Assembly: GCA_038826135.1 (NCBI GenBank)
Contig: JAWBON010000070.1
Span: 1 to 6,195, forward strand
DNA length: 6,195 nt
Direction of reading: 5' to 3'
Source of the DNA: Candidatus Odinarchaeota archaeon
GTDB lineage: Archaea; Asgardarchaeota; Odinarchaeia; Odinarchaeales; Odinarchaeaceae
The position numbers and the translations under genes are program-made. The notes below the pieces were generated by a model. That model searched no databases. It saw only the letters and a list, made by a program, of their open reading frames with translations, and was not told the origin of the DNA. Within the stretch, counting starts at the first letter, position 1; each line of letters opens with the position of its first letter. Shown in pieces: positions 1 to 6,195 of the stretch.

Positions 1-386
1 ATTATATTTTTATTGGATAGCTCGCCTGTGGAGTAAATTCCCGGCAGGATCTCTGTTTTATTTTTTATCTCAATTATTTCAGTGGATTTTTCAACTTCTT
101 TTTTAAAGTTCGCTGAGAACGATTTTAACACATAAACTACTGGTTTTATATGCTGGAGTAGGTCTGGTAGGCCGCCTATGTGATCCCAGTGGAAGTGTGA
201 TAGGAAAACGTATTTTATTTTTTCAATGTTGATTTTAAATTTTTTAATGTTTTCAAGCAGGATCGGCCCGCTCCATCCAGTGTCGAATAAAAGATAGTTG
301 TCTTTCAAATCTATTAGACAGGAGAAACCGTGGGATGCTGTGAATCCGGGTGTGGAATAGTTATCGTAGACTATTTTTACTTCCAT
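1..386 (-). CDS. MBL-fold metallo-hydrolase, COG1237/MJ0301-like; partial, 3' end runs off the left edge
   Basis: Translated by hand from ATG at 386-384, open to the window edge: MEVKIVYDNYSTPGFTASHGFSCLIDLKDNYLLFDTGWSGPILLENIKKFKINIEKIKYVFLSHFHWDHIGGLPDLL...IYSTGEL. Contains HGFSCLI, LFDTG and the HxHxDH metal motif (SHFHWDH). Not in the ORF track because no stop lies in the window. Confidence 0.9.
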   Translation of the reverse strand, partial: MEVKIVYDNYSTPGFTASHGFSCLIDLKDNYLLFDTGWSGPILLENIKKFKINIEKIKYVFLSHFHWDHIGGLPDLLQHIKPVVYVLKSFSANFKKEVEKSTEIIEIKNKTEILPGIYSTGELSNKNI

Positions 387-411
387 AGCTATAGGTGTAG
401 ATGAAAGACGA

Positions 412-426
412 TTATATTATTTTTGT
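412..426 (-). promoter_or_regulatory. Putative BRE/TATA for a leaderless MBL-hydrolase transcript
   Basis: Minus strand reads CAAAAA-TAATATAA, ending about 26 nt upstream of ATG 386, and no SD-like motif precedes the ATG. The AT-rich context makes this weak. Confidence 0.35.
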
Positions 427-478
427 TTTTTAAAAAAGATTTATAAATTTTTAAAAATGAATAAATAGAATTTTATTT

Positions 479-1366
479 TCAGATTAATCCTTTCTCCATA
501 AGAACTTGGAATTCTTCGAAGCTGAGTTTTTCACCTGATTTTAATTTCTCCTGAGCGGTTTTAATCATTTGGTTGAGTTTCAGTTCTATAAGTTTCTCTC
601 TCTCCTTTTTATCTTTAAGTTTTAACTGGTGTATTTGGTCAATGATTTTTTTCATTTCCTTTCTGGCTTCTAAATATTGGGTATGAAATTCGTCAGCTTT
701 TTTCTTGGCTTCAACGAATTTATTATGGAATTCGTCAGCTTGCTTTCTAACATCGTCAACTTGCTTATATATACCAGTCATGGTAGTATGCTCACTCTGT
801 GAGGATTTAGCTGAGGAGACTACTCCATTTTTAATATTTCTCAGAAGAAGTTTATTAGCACCGATCTGTGTCTTGCACAGGATTATTTGATTCTTTAAAG
901 CCTCTGCTTTTTTCTTAGTCTCGATTAGTTTTTCAAGCTCGGATATTTCTTTAACAAGATCTTTCTCTCTTTCTAATGAGATAACAGAGGTCTGTAGCTT
1001 CCATTCGAGGTCTTTAACCCTGTTTACAAGGGTTTTTAACGGGGTTTTAGGCGGGTTGAGAGTATTCAATTCCTCTTTTAGCTTATCATACTCTTTTAAA
1101 AGCTGTTCGTTAGTTTTCTCTAATTCCTCTCTCTTAGCTTTTAAATCAGCTACGTTTGAATTAAGTTTATCTCTTAGAGACTTCTTCTCCTTAGCCTGTG
1201 CTAGTAGTGAGGCTATCACGGTGTTTTTAGCATCTCTCTCCTCAGCGTATTTTTTAGCAATTTCATTATACTCGTCTCTTTGCTTTCTAGCATCGTTAGC
1301 TTTCTCCTTCAACTCACCTAGTTGTCTGATTAGATCCTCCGTCAAATTATCAGCCTCTAAAATCAC
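479..1366 (-). CDS. Archaeal coiled-coil protein, COG1340-like (295 aa)
   Basis: K/E-rich heptads, repeated RDxxN and ADEFH motifs, central LEWKLQTSVISLEREKDLVKEISELE, C-terminal KLKSGEKLSFEEF, all typical of this family as I recall it. GTG start at 1366; an in-frame TTG at codon 8, behind GAGGCTGAT, is an alternative start. Confidence 0.8.
   Translation of the reverse strand: MILEADNLTEDLIRQLGELKEKANDARKQRDEYNEIAKKYAEERDAKNTVIASLLAQAKEKKSLRDKLNSNVADLKAKREELEKTNEQLLKEYDKLKEELNTLNPPKTPLKTLVNRVKDLEWKLQTSVISLEREKDLVKEISELEKLIETKKKAEALKNQIILCKTQIGANKLLLRNIKNGVVSSAKSSQSEHTTMTGIYKQVDDVRKQADEFHNKFVEAKKKADEFHTQYLEARKEMKKIIDQIHQLKLKDKKEREKLIELKLNQMIKTAQEKLKSGEKLSFEEFQVLMEKGLI
687..741. repeat. Intragenic 13-bp exact direct repeat with 42-bp period
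   Basis: AATTCGTCAGCTT at 687-699 and 729-741, encoding the two ADEF(H) motifs 14 residues apart. Confidence 0.85.
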
Positions 1367-1393
1367 GCCTCACAGTTCACCAATAGATTAGCA

Positions 1394-1412
1394 GTTATAT
1401 ATAGCTTTTACC
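1394..1412 (-). promoter_or_regulatory. Putative BRE + TATA box for the coiled-coil gene
   Basis: Minus strand GGTAAAAGC-TATATATA-AC: purine-rich element directly followed by TATATATA (1403-1396), about 30 nt upstream of GTG 1366. Confidence 0.6.
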
Positions 1413-1498
1413 TTTAATGCTGTAAAACGGCTTCTAGCAAGTGTTTAAAAATGGTTTAAATCAGTAAATAAATATTTCGAATAGCATTTAATGCAGGT

Positions 1499-2278
1499 TC
1501 AGAGATTTCTAATATTGAATAGTTTAACAGTGTTTTTGAAAGTTACTTCAGCAAGTTCTTTTACATCTGTAGATTTGAGTTTAGCGATCTCGTTTAGGGA
1601 AACCACCAGGTTTTCTAAAGTGTTTCTAACACCTTTTACCGGAGATAAAGCAGGTGAGTCTGTTTCAAGTAATATTTGCTCTAAAGGAAGTTTTTTAACA
1701 AGCTTTCTTTTCTGTAAACTATAAGCTACACTTGGGGGTATACTGAAGAAAAAGCCGTTTTCAACACCGAGTTTAGCAGATTTAAACGAGCCGTCGAACG
1801 CGTGGAGTAATACTTTCTCAGCTCGGCTCTCAACTAATACTTCCAGAGCATATTTACCAGCGCTTCTACTGTGAACTATTATTGGAAGCTTATGCTCATT
1901 TGCAAGGGATATAAAACTTTTAAAATATGAACGCTGTTTCTCCCTATCATACTGGTTTTCTACTTGATAGAAGTCTAAGCCAATCTCACCTATAGCGGTT
2001 AGCCGTTGAATATTATCCTCTATAAACTTATAATTCTCTTTAAAATACGTCGCATCTAGGCTAGACGGGTTTAAGCCGACTGAAAGATAGATTTTCACAT
2101 TAGTAGTAGGAGATTCTATTTCATGAAGGGTTTTTAAAGCTGTTTTTACATCTAAAGCGGATTCAACAATCCCTATAATCCCTTTCTCATAAGCTCTTTT
2201 TAGAATAATAAATCTGTCTCCGTCAAACTCCTCTGAGAAAATATGGCAGTGCGAGTCTATTAGCTTATAACTTGGCAT
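1499..2278 (-). CDS. tatD: TatD-family metal-dependent hydrolase/DNase (259 aa)
   Basis: Motifs DSHCH, AIGEIGLDFY, LPIIVHSR, VLLHAF, LLETDSP. ATG preceded by GGTGAAGCTGGTGTAA (SD-like). Confidence 0.93.
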   Translation of the reverse strand: MPSYKLIDSHCHIFSEEFDGDRFIILKRAYEKGIIGIVESALDVKTALKTLHEIESPTTNVKIYLSVGLNPSSLDATYFKENYKFIEDNIQRLTAIGEIGLDFYQVENQYDREKQRSYFKSFISLANEHKLPIIVHSRSAGKYALEVLVESRAEKVLLHAFDGSFKSAKLGVENGFFFSIPPSVAYSLQKRKLVKKLPLEQILLETDSPALSPVKGVRNTLENLVVSLNEIAKLKSTDVKELAEVTFKNTVKLFNIRNL

Positions 2279-2358
2279 TTACACCAGCTTCACCAGTTAA
2301 TAATCTAGATTTATTTATTTCTTGAACTAATATATTTTAAGTATGGAAACATTTATGG

Positions 2359-3627
2359 TTGGTGGAATATTTGGATAAGCCTACTACCACGCTTGACATT
2401 TATAAGAGGTTTATAAATTTAAAGTTCAAATCAGAAGCCGCTGACAGGCTTAGGAAGTATTTAAATAATATACGTGAGAAAACTATGCTGGAAAATTCTT
2501 CCAGTAACCGTTTTTTAAAAATATTTGAAGCATTTATTGTTTTCTTTTCAAAAACAGTTAGTTTAAAAAATAATCACAGCGCTATTGAAACAGAAGATTT
2601 AGATAAAGCCGCATATTTTATCGAGTTTTACTCAACTTCGAAGTTATGGGCGGAGTTAGCTACCGGTAAAACATTTAAAAACTTGAAAATTTCGGAGAGT
2701 GATTTCTTAACGGAAATTAAGAAAATATATAGTTTAGAGGTCTCCTTTAACGCTAAGAACGCTGTTGACAGGATTATGGAGCGTTTCACACTTCATGTAA
2801 ACCAGATGTTTAGTGAAAATGAAAATATTGTTAAAGAAAAATTCTTGCTATTAATAAGATACACTATTATAATGCTATCTTTCTTGATATCTATCTCGAG
2901 AGATGAAGGGAGATTAACCGTTGACACGGTTTTAAAAGGGTATGAATTATTTAGAAGTATATTGTTTAGGATTCCGAGTTTTGAATTCGATTCATTGTTT
3001 AATCTTAAAAATTTTATTAAAAAAGAGGTTATAATGCGGCTACTAGAGTACATGGAGGAGGCTGAGAGAAACAGAATCACTGGGGAAGTTACTGAAAAAT
3101 TAGTGAATAGTTTAGTGGTAAGAGACTTAACTGATGAAAAACCGATGTTTTATGCTGAGCTTAAATCCGCCATCTATGTTATTTTCCTTTTCATCCATTA
3201 TGCTAGAGGAGTGTTTCGATTTAATGATAAAGACTCTCTGGAACTGTTAAAAATTTATAATAATATTAAAAATGGAATAGTTGAAGAGGCGGATGTAACA
3301 GTAGATGATAGTTTTTATGAATGTCTTTCAAACATAGAATTATCTATAGATGCTAGGATTTTTTTAAACAGTATAACTAATATGATAATTAGTTTTGAAG
3401 CAGAGCTGAACATAGCTGATAGAATGAATTTAATCCCTGAACTTGCGCGTAAAATTTCACACACAATTTCATTATTATCTAAAATGTTTTCTCTCAGATA
3501 TAAAAAAACAGAATGCGATGTGGATGATTTGAAAAAAGGCTTGAATATAATTTCAAATGTTTTTTCAAAAGCTAAGCAAGGTTTACTTCTGGCCTCTAAG
3601 GATTATTCTAGCATCAACAACGGATAA
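2359..3627 (+). CDS. Hypothetical all-helical protein (422 aa) with four tandem AAA+-lid-like repeats
   Basis: Long open frame with no enzyme motif I recognise; internal ~100-aa periodicity found by manual alignment (see findings). Start uncertain: TTG 2359, GTG 2362 or TTG 2371. Confidence 0.75.
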   Translation: MVEYLDKPTTTLDIYKRFINLKFKSEAADRLRKYLNNIREKTMLENSSSNRFLKIFEAFIVFFSKTVSLKNNHSAIETEDLDKAAYFIEFYSTSKLWAELATGKTFKNLKISESDFLTEIKKIYSLEVSFNAKNAVDRIMERFTLHVNQMFSENENIVKEKFLLLIRYTIIMLSFLISISRDEGRLTVDTVLKGYELFRSILFRIPSFEFDSLFNLKNFIKKEVIMRLLEYMEEAERNRITGEVTEKLVNSLVVRDLTDEKPMFYAELKSAIYVIFLFIHYARGVFRFNDKDSLELLKIYNNIKNGIVEEADVTVDDSFYECLSNIELSIDARIFLNSITNMIISFEAELNIADRMNLIPELARKISHTISLLSKMFSLRYKKTECDVDDLKKGLNIISNVFSKAKQGLLLASKDYSSINNG

Positions 3628-4302
3628 ACCGTTTTCGTAAACAATAACAGGGTTAAGATCAAGCTCTAATATTTCAGGGTATTTTAATACGAGAGATGAT
3701 ATTTTAAGGAGTGTTTCTTTAATACTTTTTATATCAGCTTTACAACCACTCCTATATCCGTTTAAAATAGGATAAGCCTTTAATTCTTTCAACATTTCCT
3801 CAGCGTCAAGATCTGAAATCGGTATTAAGCGCATACTAAAATCTTTCAATAACTCTACGAATACACCACCTAACCCAACCATTATCGTATGACCGAACTG
3901 CTCATCGAAGGATACGCCTATTATAAGTTCAACTATTCCTCTAGGAGCCATTTTAGAAACCATAACACCGTCTATTCTAGCATGTTTAGCCTTCGCCGAT
4001 ACGTTACTTATAATTTTATTATACGCTTCAGCCACATCTTTCTTATCGGTTAAATTGAGCATAACACCCCCGTAGTCGGATTTATGAATTATGTCCGGTG
4101 ACGTAATTTTAAGCACAACCGGGTAACCTAACTTTTCAGCTGCTTCAAGCGCTTCTTTAACACTCCTAACTAGTTTATATTCTGGGATGGGGACGCTGAT
4201 TTCTCTAAGAATATTTTTACTCTCATACTCTGTTAACACATATCGACCTGATGAAATAGTTTTTGAAATAATCTCACTGATCAATTCATTAGTTGAAGGC
4301 AT
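3583..4302 (-). CDS. acdB: ADP-forming acetate/acyl-CoA synthetase beta subunit, ATP-grasp (239 aa)
   Basis: Motifs LTEYESK, GYPVVLKITSPDIIHKSDYGGV, ELIIG..DEQFGHTIMVGLGGVFVELLKD, ELDLNP, VVDARI. Length fits a stand-alone beta subunit. Confidence 0.9.
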   Translation of the reverse strand: MPSTNELISEIISKTISSGRYVLTEYESKNILREISVPIPEYKLVRSVKEALEAAEKLGYPVVLKITSPDIIHKSDYGGVMLNLTDKKDVAEAYNKIISNVSAKAKHARIDGVMVSKMAPRGIVELIIGVSFDEQFGHTIMVGLGGVFVELLKDFSMRLIPISDLDAEEMLKELKAYPILNGYRSGCKADIKSIKETLLKISSLVLKYPEILELDLNPVIVYENGLSVVDARIILRGQK

Positions 4303-4339
4303 GTTAATACACTCTTACTTTAGTTATCTATAAAATTTA

Positions 4340-5104
4340 TTATGTGATGTAACCGTCTTCGCCGCCGAAAAATATTCTTGAAATCTGCCCGTATATTTTT
4401 TCAATGCTTATAACGTCATTTATAGAGACGGGTTGAAGACCAGATATCAACCCTATATTCTCCAGATTATAGTAGAGTTGAATCGCCAGCTCCCTGTAAA
4501 TGCTACTATCCTCCTCACTTAAGGATTCTAGCAGGCTATACGGTTCTGACCCCCATTTCAATATTCTTTCAAGTTCACTCTCAGTGATTAAATCCACTTT
4601 TGTAAGCAAATTCACTTGAGGAGTGTTAAACCTGAACTGGGTTGATATACTTAATAGAAGTATTGAAACAAAATCGGATGGTTTCCGCGCCAGCGTCGGG
4701 TCTATTAAAAAAAACACCATACAATTCTTACGCCCTAGGGATTCGACTATAAAAGGACCTGAAGACCTATATGTGAAAAGTTCCATTTGACCAGGAGTGT
4801 CAACTAAAACAATCTCGTTACCTAACTCTAGTATTTCCTGCTGTATATCATTTATTTTAGCAGCCATAATATCAGCTGCAGCTATCAGTGCACCGTTAGG
4901 ACCCAGGTTATAGTCTAAAATAATCCTCTCTATATCCACATAGTTTCTCACATCAACGTCAGCGCCGTAAGGGAGTGTCACAACCCCAGGGTCGAGGTTA
5001 ACAGTTGTAGCATCTATTTTATGATCACTCAACCATTTAGATACAGAGTTAACAAGTGAAGATTTACCTGACCCCGCAGGCCCAATGAAAAAAGAATAAT
5101 ACAT
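4340..5104 (-). CDS. GPN-loop GTPase (254 aa)
   Basis: G1 GPAGSGKS, NLDPG, signature LGPNGA, G3 DTPGQMELF, G4 TKVD. SD-like GGGGTGG upstream of ATG 5104. Confidence 0.93.
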   Translation of the reverse strand: MYYSFFIGPAGSGKSSLVNSVSKWLSDHKIDATTVNLDPGVVTLPYGADVDVRNYVDIERIILDYNLGPNGALIAAADIMAAKINDIQQEILELGNEIVLVDTPGQMELFTYRSSGPFIVESLGRKNCMVFFLIDPTLARKPSDFVSILLLSISTQFRFNTPQVNLLTKVDLITESELERILKWGSEPYSLLESLSEEDSSIYRELAIQLYYNLENIGLISGLQPVSINDVISIEKIYGQISRIFFGGEDGYIT

Positions 5105-5229
5105 TTACGTAAACCACCCCATTAGATTAAACAAAGTTTAACAGAGAATATTGAAATTAATTAAATATAAAAAGCCACAGATTAAAATATGTTGGGGAAA
5201 GTTCATAAATAAAACTGTGAGGAGTTAAA
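5105..5229. promoter_or_regulatory. Divergent promoter region between the GPN GTPase gene and pyrD
   Basis: 125-bp AT-rich gap between head-to-head starts. TTAAATATAAAAAG at 5161-5174 is TATA-like on either strand; GTGAGGAG SD-like motif at 5217-5224 before pyrD. Confidence 0.45.
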
Positions 5230-6153
5230 ATGAGTTTGTTGAAAACGGCTTTAGGTTCAGTATCACTTATCAATCCTGTTATAATAGCTTCCGGTGTTTT
5301 AGGAACTACAGCTGAAGGTATTAGATTATTATATGAGAGAGGGGCTGGCGCTATCGTGACTAAGACGACTACTTTAAACCGTAGGGAGGGTAACGTTAAT
5401 CCGACTGTTGTGTCCACACCTTCAGGGATTCTTAACTGTATGGGGCTTCCGAACCCGGGGATAGATGAAATGTGCAGGGAGGTTGAGATAGTCTGCAGGG
5501 AGGGTGTGCCGGTTATAGGAAGCGTTGCCGGCTCTTCAATCAATGAATTCGTACAGGTGGCGGGTAGATTTGAGGAGGCGGGTGTGATTGCGGTTGAATT
5601 AAACGTCTCATGCCCTCATGAAGAAGTTGGTTTAATAGGTCAAGACTGTAAGTTAACATATCAAGTTGTTAAAGCGGTGAAAGATGCGGTTAACATACCT
5701 GTAATAGTGAAACTGACACCGAACGTGACAAGTATAGTGGATGTGGCGTTAGAGGCTGAGAAAGCTGGGGCGGATGCGCTAACAGCTATCAACACGGTGA
5801 AAGGGATGGTTATTGACGTAGACACAGGTTACCCCACTCTAAGTAATAGGGTTGGGGGATTATCAGGGCCTGCTATAAAACCTATTGCAGTACGGTGTGT
5901 TTACGAAATCTATAGCAGTGATGTTAAGATACCGATTATAGGGGTGGGGGGTATCGCTAACTGGAGAGATGCACTAGAATTCATAATGGCTGGGGCCTCC
6001 GCCATACAAATAGGAACAGCTCTTATACGAGGTTATCATATTATCGAAAACGTAAAGAAAGGTTTACTACAATATATGCGGAAAAATAATATTAAAACGA
6101 TTAGTGAAATCGTAGGCTTATCTCATAAGAGGGATAGGGTTGCATACACCTAA
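5230..6153 (+). CDS. pyrD: Dihydroorotate dehydrogenase, family 1B catalytic subunit (307 aa)
   Basis: Motifs IIASG, KTTT..RREGN..P, NCMGLPNPG, catalytic-Cys loop ELNVSCPH, VKLTPNV, AINT, GGLSGPAIKPIA, IPIIGVGGI, AGASAIQIGTA. Confidence 0.95.
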   Translation: MSLLKTALGSVSLINPVIIASGVLGTTAEGIRLLYERGAGAIVTKTTTLNRREGNVNPTVVSTPSGILNCMGLPNPGIDEMCREVEIVCREGVPVIGSVAGSSINEFVQVAGRFEEAGVIAVELNVSCPHEEVGLIGQDCKLTYQVVKAVKDAVNIPVIVKLTPNVTSIVDVALEAEKAGADALTAINTVKGMVIDVDTGYPTLSNRVGGLSGPAIKPIAVRCVYEIYSSDVKIPIIGVGGIANWRDALEFIMAGASAIQIGTALIRGYHIIENVKKGLLQYMRKNNIKTISEIVGLSHKRDRVAYT

Positions 6154-6195
6154 AGTTAGGAAAATATTGAAAGTTGAATCTGAAACTGAGAATAT
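6140..6195 (+). CDS. pyrK: Probable DHODH electron-transfer subunit PyrK; 5' fragment, runs off the right edge
   Basis: TTG at 6140, 6 nt after GAGGG and overlapping the pyrD stop by 14 bp, reads MHTPKVRKILKVESETEN. This fits the ferredoxin-reductase-type N-terminus P-x3-(K/R)I-x2-(V/I)-x2-E(T/S), and family 1B PyrD is expected to have a PyrK partner. Only 18 codons are visible. Confidence 0.6.
   Translation, partial: MHTPKVRKILKVESETEN

Follow-up and report, generated by a model that had tools for sequence, protein, structure and literature searches.

Several eukaryotic coiled-coil proteins have been connected with messenger RNA (mRNA) or with the plasma membrane. The proton pump interactor PPI1 of Arabidopsis (At4g27500) stimulates the plasma-membrane H+-ATPase, to the C-terminus of which it binds, and the binding is attributed to full-length PPI1 or to its N-terminal domain (PMC11394911). 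AtPPI1 is also listed under 'stress granule associated proteins' in a table of an mRNA-interactome study (PMC6985371). In Bfr1, in vivo RNA cross-link sites were found in the first two coiled coils and their connector, at R38, H79 and K138, and the localisation of the protein at the endoplasmic reticulum (ER) depends on RNA binding (PMC6859859). ERBP1 of T. brucei, an mRNA binder at the ER, belongs to the Bfr1 family (IPR039604), and beyond the kinetoplastids it is matched most closely by proteins from a red alga, an oomycete, a brown alga and a diatom (PMC7025706). In archaea, the family DUF7121/COG1340 bears the label 'uncharacterized archaeal coiled-coil protein', and its members are often mislabelled 'phosphoserine phosphatase' or 'DUF342 family'. 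Here, we analysed a 6,195-nucleotide (nt) stretch of DNA from Candidatus Odinarchaeota archaeon (assembly GCA_038826135.1, contig JAWBON010000070.1, positions 1 to 6,195), hereafter referred to as the window, which has a DUF7121 gene on its minus strand. An initial annotation had compared the protein with a segment of PPI1 and had suggested that the family may be the prokaryotic counterpart of PPI1/Bfr1. Our analysis indicates that the protein is a DUF7121 member, modelled as a hairpin, with a tip that is likely homologous to that of PPI and probably to that of Bfr1; it may serve as an RNA-linked scaffold.

The open reading frame (ORF) itself is an ordinary member of DUF7121. It matches the Pfam family PF23435 (DUF7121) from end to end, with 77.9 bits against a cut-off of 29 and an E-value of 1.2e-21 (residues 17-294, profile positions 35-306/307), and it scores 79.6 bits in a search of the whole host genome, which is 1.26 Mb in size, 93% complete and has a single DUF7121 copy. 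All the motifs of the family, which are three of RDxxN type, LEW..QT, EK, AQxEHxxM, KxADxxH and GEKLS, are present in it and nothing essential differs. Among named relatives, the closest is a 'coiled-coil protein' from an Odinarchaeia archaeon, with 55% identity. DUF7121 was found in 101 of the 121 Asgard genomes sampled, and also in Thermoplasmatota, Bathyarchaeia, Archaeoglobi and methanogen-related lineages; a GEKLS-based pattern search of genome contigs gave 326 relatives. Of three control genomes, those of H. volcanii, S. acidocaldarius and M. acetivorans, at least two have a match to the Pfam model that exceeds its cut-off. No paper naming DUF7121 was found in the literature searched. 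The true start is probably the TTG at 1345, which gives a product of 288 amino acids (aa), because the closest homologues have 288 aa and the ESM Atlas record begins at residue 8. This start would move the residue numbering by 7. What is new is the specific link of DUF7121 to PPI, and probably to Bfr1, which we did not find stated in the literature searched.

An AlphaFold2 model, made with an alignment of 25 family members (A1), has a predicted local distance difference test (pLDDT) score of 92. The modelled protein is a long antiparallel helical hairpin, in which the N-arm helix and the C-arm helix are joined by a tip that includes a helix of 17 residues (H110-126) and the loop 127-130. The tip would thus have two loops, one ahead of the 17-residue helix and one, of 4 residues, after it, and would extend into the first part of the return helix; its consensus is L-E-[WFY]-[KR]-x-[QM]-T ... 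E-[KR]-x-L-[VI]-x-x-I-x-x-L. The motif singled out in the initial annotation, residues 122-145, runs from the end of the tip helix (WKLQT) across the 4-residue loop (SVIS) into the first part of the C-arm helix (LEREKDLVKEISELE). In A1 the central motif reads LE[WF]K.[QM]T ... E[KR]. Two residues inside the reported motif, T126 and E134, are invariant in the family, and the near-invariant E121 stands immediately before it.

The pairing from which the comparison started proved to be sound. Translation of window 932-1003, minus strand, gives WKLQTSVISLEREKDLVKEISELE, as had been read, while the plus-strand frame at these positions is full of stops and non-coding. The plant segment is genuine. 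Using a 42-residue bait that contains the 24-residue segment, we retrieved 345 plant proteins, and the segment was found with 100% identity and coverage in PPI1 of Arabidopsis thaliana (615 aa; P0043), where it occupies residues 191-214, and in PPI1 of A. lyrata. The ungapped pairing of the ORF with PPI1 has 10 of the 24 residues in common, and profile methods independently choose that register. The RDxxN-type motifs, which had been put forward as a second likeness, do exist in PPI1 (RDETN, RDKAYSN), but there they are located in the C-arm, whereas the three archaeal ones are in the N-arm. Several PPI1 proteins carry a precomputed match to PF23435, and PF27883 and PF28572 are also precomputed on PPI1.

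The evidence that carries the link comes from the tip alone, after masking of the coiled-coil flanks. We aligned the tips of 46 diverse archaeal sequences over 43 profile positions (A4), to which the ORF contributes window 917-1045, and compared A4 using hhalign with a full-length alignment of 42 diverse land-plant PPI proteins (A3); the land-plant set was drawn from a search of 1.84 billion representative sequences. A single match was obtained, to plant columns 187-224, with a probability of 91%, a score of 41.1 and a P-value of 1e-6. The controls gave a score of 18.4 (P 0.048) against SMC proteins, 11.5 (P 0.37) against reversed A3 and 14.1 (P 0.13) against A3 from which the tip had been excised. 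In the reverse direction, a profile of the plant tip found the correct position in 154 archaeal sequences with a P-value of 7e-6, while against SMC the P-value was 0.34. Among all 3849 six-frame ORFs of the host genome, the hidden Markov model (HMM) of the plant tip gives this ORF 18.4 bits and the next one 7.2 bits. The archaeal tip HMM, in turn, reaches up to 27-31 bits on plant proteins, and 30 of these exceed 17.8 bits, which is its noise ceiling in 177,635 PDB sequences, where designed coiled-coil peptides alone match, and only partially. Searches of PDB sequences with the archaeal and plant profiles gave nothing except coiled-coil noise. Since the tip-only match is specific and the natural controls (SMC, tip-less PPI, PDB, host genome) are negative, homology of the tips is supported, and we consider it likely that the tip of DUF7121 is homologous to that of plant PPI (PPI1-4). 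The plant motif SLxYRIQHESIPLxEEKQxLxEIKxLE is matched by the archaeal tip specifically and reciprocally.

A search made from the plant side agrees with this result. A profile of one plant exon, built from natural fragments (A5), was run against the six-frame translations of the 121 Asgard genomes, and its 8 best matches (E-values of 1.7e-5 to 0.014 per genome) are all within DUF7121 genes. Three of the 8, with lengths of 284-309 aa, are ORFs missed by the Pfam model, and a broader archaeal HMM confirms them with 77-85 bits. The models are also alike at the tip. In the AlphaFold model of the PPI domain (P0118 with A3, pLDDT 82), a helix 92-171 is followed by a loop, a 17-residue helix (H180-196), a loop 197-200 and a long helix, so that both proteins have the layout of long helix, loop, 17-residue helix, 4-residue loop and long helix. 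In an ESM Atlas search that started from the PPI domain, the 30 nearest clusters included 18 of DUF7121 and 3 of 'Nuclear segregation protein Bfr1'; one Atlas cluster contains archaeal and plant members together.

Two observations on individual tips can be added. In the Asgard family f7 (L156:1815-2741:+, L157:1555-2406:-, L158:1813-2676:+), PF23435.1 has 0/5 matches, yet the family has DUF7121 proteins, and these have the most plant-like tips seen among those examined (37-50 bits with the plant PPI domain HMM); the f7 tips read SLEWKIQ..LP..EEK and the plant ones SLEWRIQ..IP..EEK. In a PPI1-like protein of Lycium barbarum (P0029; plant alignment A2, columns 201-300), there is a second tip copy in tandem, CSSEEEL...YRIQHE.IPL.EEKQILREIK...; a duplicated exon or an error of annotation may account for it.

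Comparisons over the whole length of the proteins gave higher values, which we do not use. With hhalign, A1 aligned to 24 angiosperm PPI1 sequences with a probability of 70% (P 4e-5, 117 columns) and to A3 with 95.3% (P 2e-8, 178 columns), and 49 Asgard sequences aligned to the plant PPI domain with 97.2% (P 3e-11, 222 columns). All three alignments are in the register of the initial annotation, and reversed and column-shuffled nulls scored 13-26 as compared with 65 observed. However, as a natural control, the archaeal profiles aligned to 22 Asgard SMC proteins with probabilities of 95-96% and P-values of 4e-9 to 7e-8 over 275 columns. Because long coiled coils score 'significantly' against one another, as this control shows, the whole-length values are unusable, and whole-length hhalign was rejected as a proof of homology. 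For long coiled coils, reversal and column shuffling are too lenient as nulls and grossly understate the false positives of hhalign (SMC, probability 95%, P 1e-8). HMM-to-sequence scores over the arms (27-34 bits) were not used as evidence either; they may be compared with the 35 bits (E-value 2.5e-9) of an SMC model, which is the best NCBIfam match of the ORF protein (P0001). Whole-length HH scores for DUF7121 in any report should be read with the SMC false positive in mind.

The SMC control and the SMC model match are two of several points that weigh against common descent with PPI. As the whole-length values are unusable, the specific signal is limited to about 38-45 columns. The arms of DUF7121 and PPI are colinear but without specific similarity, the C-arms giving a P-value of 0.04 only; the proposal of an archaeal counterpart of PPI1 is supported for the tip module, which DUF7121 and PPI have in common. 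The tip of Arabidopsis PPI1 itself scores just 11 bits with the archaeal tip HMM, and the older Pfam model PF23435.1 has no PPI1 match at an E-value of 1 or below. No longer protein came up in a search with A1, which is weak evidence. Moreover, the likeness varies among archaea. With the plant tip HMM, the median and maximum are 8.4 and 24.8 bits in Asgard and 10.1 and 20.4 bits in Bathyarchaeia, but 1.3 and 6.0 bits in Thermoplasmatota-type loci, where 0 of 68 reach 10 bits. The most eukaryote-like tips are thus in Asgard and Bathyarchaeia lineages. In likeness to PPI, the tip of this ORF ranks near the top of the archaeal tips and the host genus near the top of the lineages, so that the initial annotation had examined a favourable case. 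This distribution among lineages would fit an origin of the eukaryotic family on the Asgard/TACK side.

The first alternative to be weighed is that two coiled coils rich in E, K and L resemble each other by chance or through composition, without common ancestry. The inflated coiled-coil scores described above speak for it, as do the weak matches of PPI proteins to many coiled-coil Pfam families and the structural search, in which Foldseek of the model against the PDB returned generic antiparallel hairpins only (dynein stalk, SMC arms, MukB elbow). In addition, the original match was in effect an uncontrolled search. Yet the tests of the tip alone are specific, their natural controls staying close to background, the plant exon profile places DUF7121 genes first across 121 genomes, and in the Atlas the PPI domain has DUF7121 for its main neighbour. 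The helix and loop lengths of the models are identical. We therefore regard chance likeness as improbable.

A second alternative, which we consider quite unlikely, is convergence, in which the tip would be a structural 'cap' that closes long antiparallel coiled coils, and alike sequences would have arisen twice under the same packing constraints. The shortness of the signal, about 40 residues, the lack of specific similarity in the arms and the location of the conserved RDxxN motifs in opposite arms all fit this account. However, some pairs, such as Asgard f7 and plant tips, are up to about 40% identical, and the positions in common include polar ones that do not take part in packing (E, Q, EEK). 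Furthermore, nothing similar is seen in other hairpins, such as the hinge-proximal arms of SMC or the dynein stalk. Homology of the tips is thus the reading that we prefer.

The link to Bfr1 comes by way of leads. The 3 Bfr1 clusters among the 30 nearest Atlas clusters of the PPI domain are one of them. The representative search from the PPI domain returned land plants only among the best 150 of 606 matches and reached no fungal Bfr1. A 42-residue segment, presumed to be that of Bfr1, aligned to A4 with a P-value of 9.4e-6 and has 38% identity to the ORF, and it aligned to the plant exon profile A5 in the same register with a P-value of 0.008; both are leads and not results. In the alignment of this presumed segment, K138 is set on K139 of the ORF, within the LVKE that both have, and the numbering of R38, H79 and K138 in the presumed sequence agrees with the published one (PMC6859859). 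K139 is not conserved across archaea. On these leads, we find it rather probable that the tip of the Bfr1/ERBP1 family is also homologous to that of DUF7121. The proteins of this family (IPR039604, PTHR31027), which bind mRNA, are associated with polysomes and the ER and are found in fungi, kinetoplastids and other eukaryotes, are like DUF7121 helical coiled-coil proteins without a canonical RNA-binding domain; Bfr1 differs in its length of about 470 aa and in its third coiled coil (PMC6859859). In the literature searched, no paper names Bfr1 together with PPI1.

As to function, we infer an RNA-linked role because the analogous Bfr1 and ERBP1 bind mRNA without canonical domains and PPI1 was recovered in a study of the plant mRNA interactome. 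By this analogy, the archaeal protein may act as a rod-shaped scaffold on RNA, on messenger ribonucleoproteins (mRNPs) or on translating ribosomes, with contact surfaces formed by the tip and by charged Arg/Asp/Asn-His 'rungs' along the arms. An RNA- or ribosome-linked function of DUF7121 is a possibility that we hold tentatively. Of 80 archaeal loci, 43 have the SRP54 gene directly downstream of DUF7121 in the same orientation (L003-L080, e.g. L008:5047-6417:+), and genes of Methyltrn_RNA_2, an RNA methyltransferase, and of a class I tRNA synthetase often come next. The DUF7121 copies of the Asgard family f6 (L109, L111-L122) have C-terminal extensions of 40-150 aa, in which a basic patch (KKRSKKK or GRRGKPRRRARK) precedes an acidic tail rich in S, T, E and P; some f6 copies are also extended at the N-terminus. 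The SRP54 neighbourhood and the basic-acidic tails are hints of an RNA or ribosome link. Two points count against such a role: the SRP54 adjacency is limited to one phylum, all 43 loci being Thermoplasmatota-type, leaves a gap with a median of about 279 nt and does not occur in the window, and no experiment on any DUF7121 protein was found in the literature searched.

We give little credence to the alternative that the protein is a chromosome- or DNA-associated scaffold related to the arms of SMC, and not RNA-linked. SMC is its best NCBIfam match, and the hhalign probability to SMC arms is 95%. TatD, a nuclease-family hydrolase, is encoded upstream in the window, and DUF7121 is located 4-12 kb from smc in several Asgard genomes (G011:C23, G022:C40, G012:C1, G023:C1, G034:C81), by synteny or by chance. 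However, in the alignment the entire hairpin falls on a single uninterrupted helix of SMC, a likeness of heptads that is generic; the tip does not match SMC, and the conserved neighbours elsewhere are SRP54, the RNA methyltransferase and the tRNA synthetase. The arms of SMC/Rad50 and the dynein stalk are long antiparallel coiled-coil hairpins like DUF7121 and are its top structural and whole-length profile matches, but DUF7121 lacks an ATPase head, a hinge and a zinc hook, and the tip module has no counterpart there. The likeness to these proteins is generic.

Plant PPI proteins differ from DUF7121 outside the shared domain, which begins near PPI1 residue 92. They have about 90 additional N-terminal residues, with a disordered stretch followed by a conserved EWPxPKQIHSFYF(V) block, and a long charged region rich in P, E and K with a C-terminal membrane anchor, and they do not have the GEKLS end. 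The EWPxPKQIHSFYFV block is absent from the archaeal protein, which opens directly with the N-arm helix and ends with GEKLS and a short helix, with no hydrophobic tail or membrane anchor. The first 88 residues of PPI1 reportedly suffice for pump binding, as Morandini 2002 and Viotti 2005 are said to have found. The initial annotation had offered, as one possible role, an adaptor of a membrane ATPase; that the protein binds and stimulates a membrane ion-pumping ATPase, as described for PPI1 (PMC11394911), is very unlikely, because the N-terminal part of PPI1, to which pump binding is attributed, lies ahead of the shared domain and is without an equivalent in the archaeal protein, which also lacks an anchor, and because no ATPase gene is a conserved neighbour in the loci examined.

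The features of the locus are listed in Table 1. Within A1, the residues R44, R65, D66, N69, T126, E134, H193, M196, G278, K280 and L281 are invariant, and all are present in the ORF. The three RDxxN-type motifs are in the first third of the protein (R30; R44, D45 and N48; R65, D66 and N69), and A186, Q190, H193, M196, K221, A224 and H228 are conserved in the C-arm.

Table 1 Features of the DUF7121 locus, in window coordinates.
Feature	Position	Strand	Basis or remark
A/T-rich TATA-like element 5' of the ORF	1394..1406	minus	Read from the sequence
DUF7121/COG1340 coiled-coil protein ORF	479..1366	minus	295 aa from GTG at 1366; 288 aa from the probable TTG start at 1345
N-arm helix, residues 2-103	1058..1363	minus	AlphaFold, pLDDT >90; conserved columns of A1
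Tip module, residues 108-150	917..1045	minus	Sole part with a specific match to plant PPI
Motif of the initial annotation, residues 122-145	932..1003	minus	Translation; AlphaFold secondary structure
C-arm helix, residues 131-277	536..976	minus	AlphaFold; AQxEHxxM and two KxADxxH motifs
GEKLS (residues 278-282), then short helix (283-291)	494..535	minus	G278, K280 and L281 invariant; AlphaFold helix H283-291

The ORF is separated from the upstream TatD ORF by 132 nt, and the TATA-like element suggests, as read from the DNA, that the gene may have a promoter of its own, separate from that of TatD. The neighbours in the window, the TatD hydrolase upstream and an MBL-fold gene downstream, give no clear functional pointer. 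Other genes were noticed in the window and around DUF7121 elsewhere. In Bathyarchaeia (L002, L009, L016, L017, L025, L036, L038), DUF7121 stands between an ATP-grasp_5 gene, immediately upstream, and a DUF373 gene, immediately downstream; the ATP-grasp_5 gene of the window (3583-4302, minus) is on the same strand as DUF7121, 2.2 kb upstream. An ORF of 422 aa at 2359-3627 (plus) has no Pfam or NCBIfam match and shares 45 nt at its 3' end with the convergent ATP-grasp_5 gene. The segment 4340-5104 (minus) encodes a GPN-loop GTPase (PF03029 ATP_bind_1, E-value 1.2e-55) of the family to which eukaryotic Npa3/GPN1 belongs, and it adjoins a dihydroorotate dehydrogenase gene.

DUF7121/COG1340 is among the most widespread archaeal families without a function, and the link described here gives it a testable hypothesis, namely that it associates with RNA or polysomes through its tip and arms. 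It also suggests that one ancient module, elaborated separately in each lineage, underlies the 'proton pump interactor' proteins of plants and the 'brefeldin resistance' proteins of yeast. More speculatively, and with considerable doubt, DUF7121 might be the archaeal ancestor of a eukaryote-wide superfamily of ER mRNA-binding coiled-coil proteins (Bfr1 in fungi, ERBP1 in kinetoplastids, PPI in plants), and would then be a general archaeal factor on mRNPs or translating ribosomes, beside co-translational targeting that depends on the signal recognition particle. The link would add a candidate to the proteins of eukaryotic RNA biology that have archaeal, possibly Asgard, roots.

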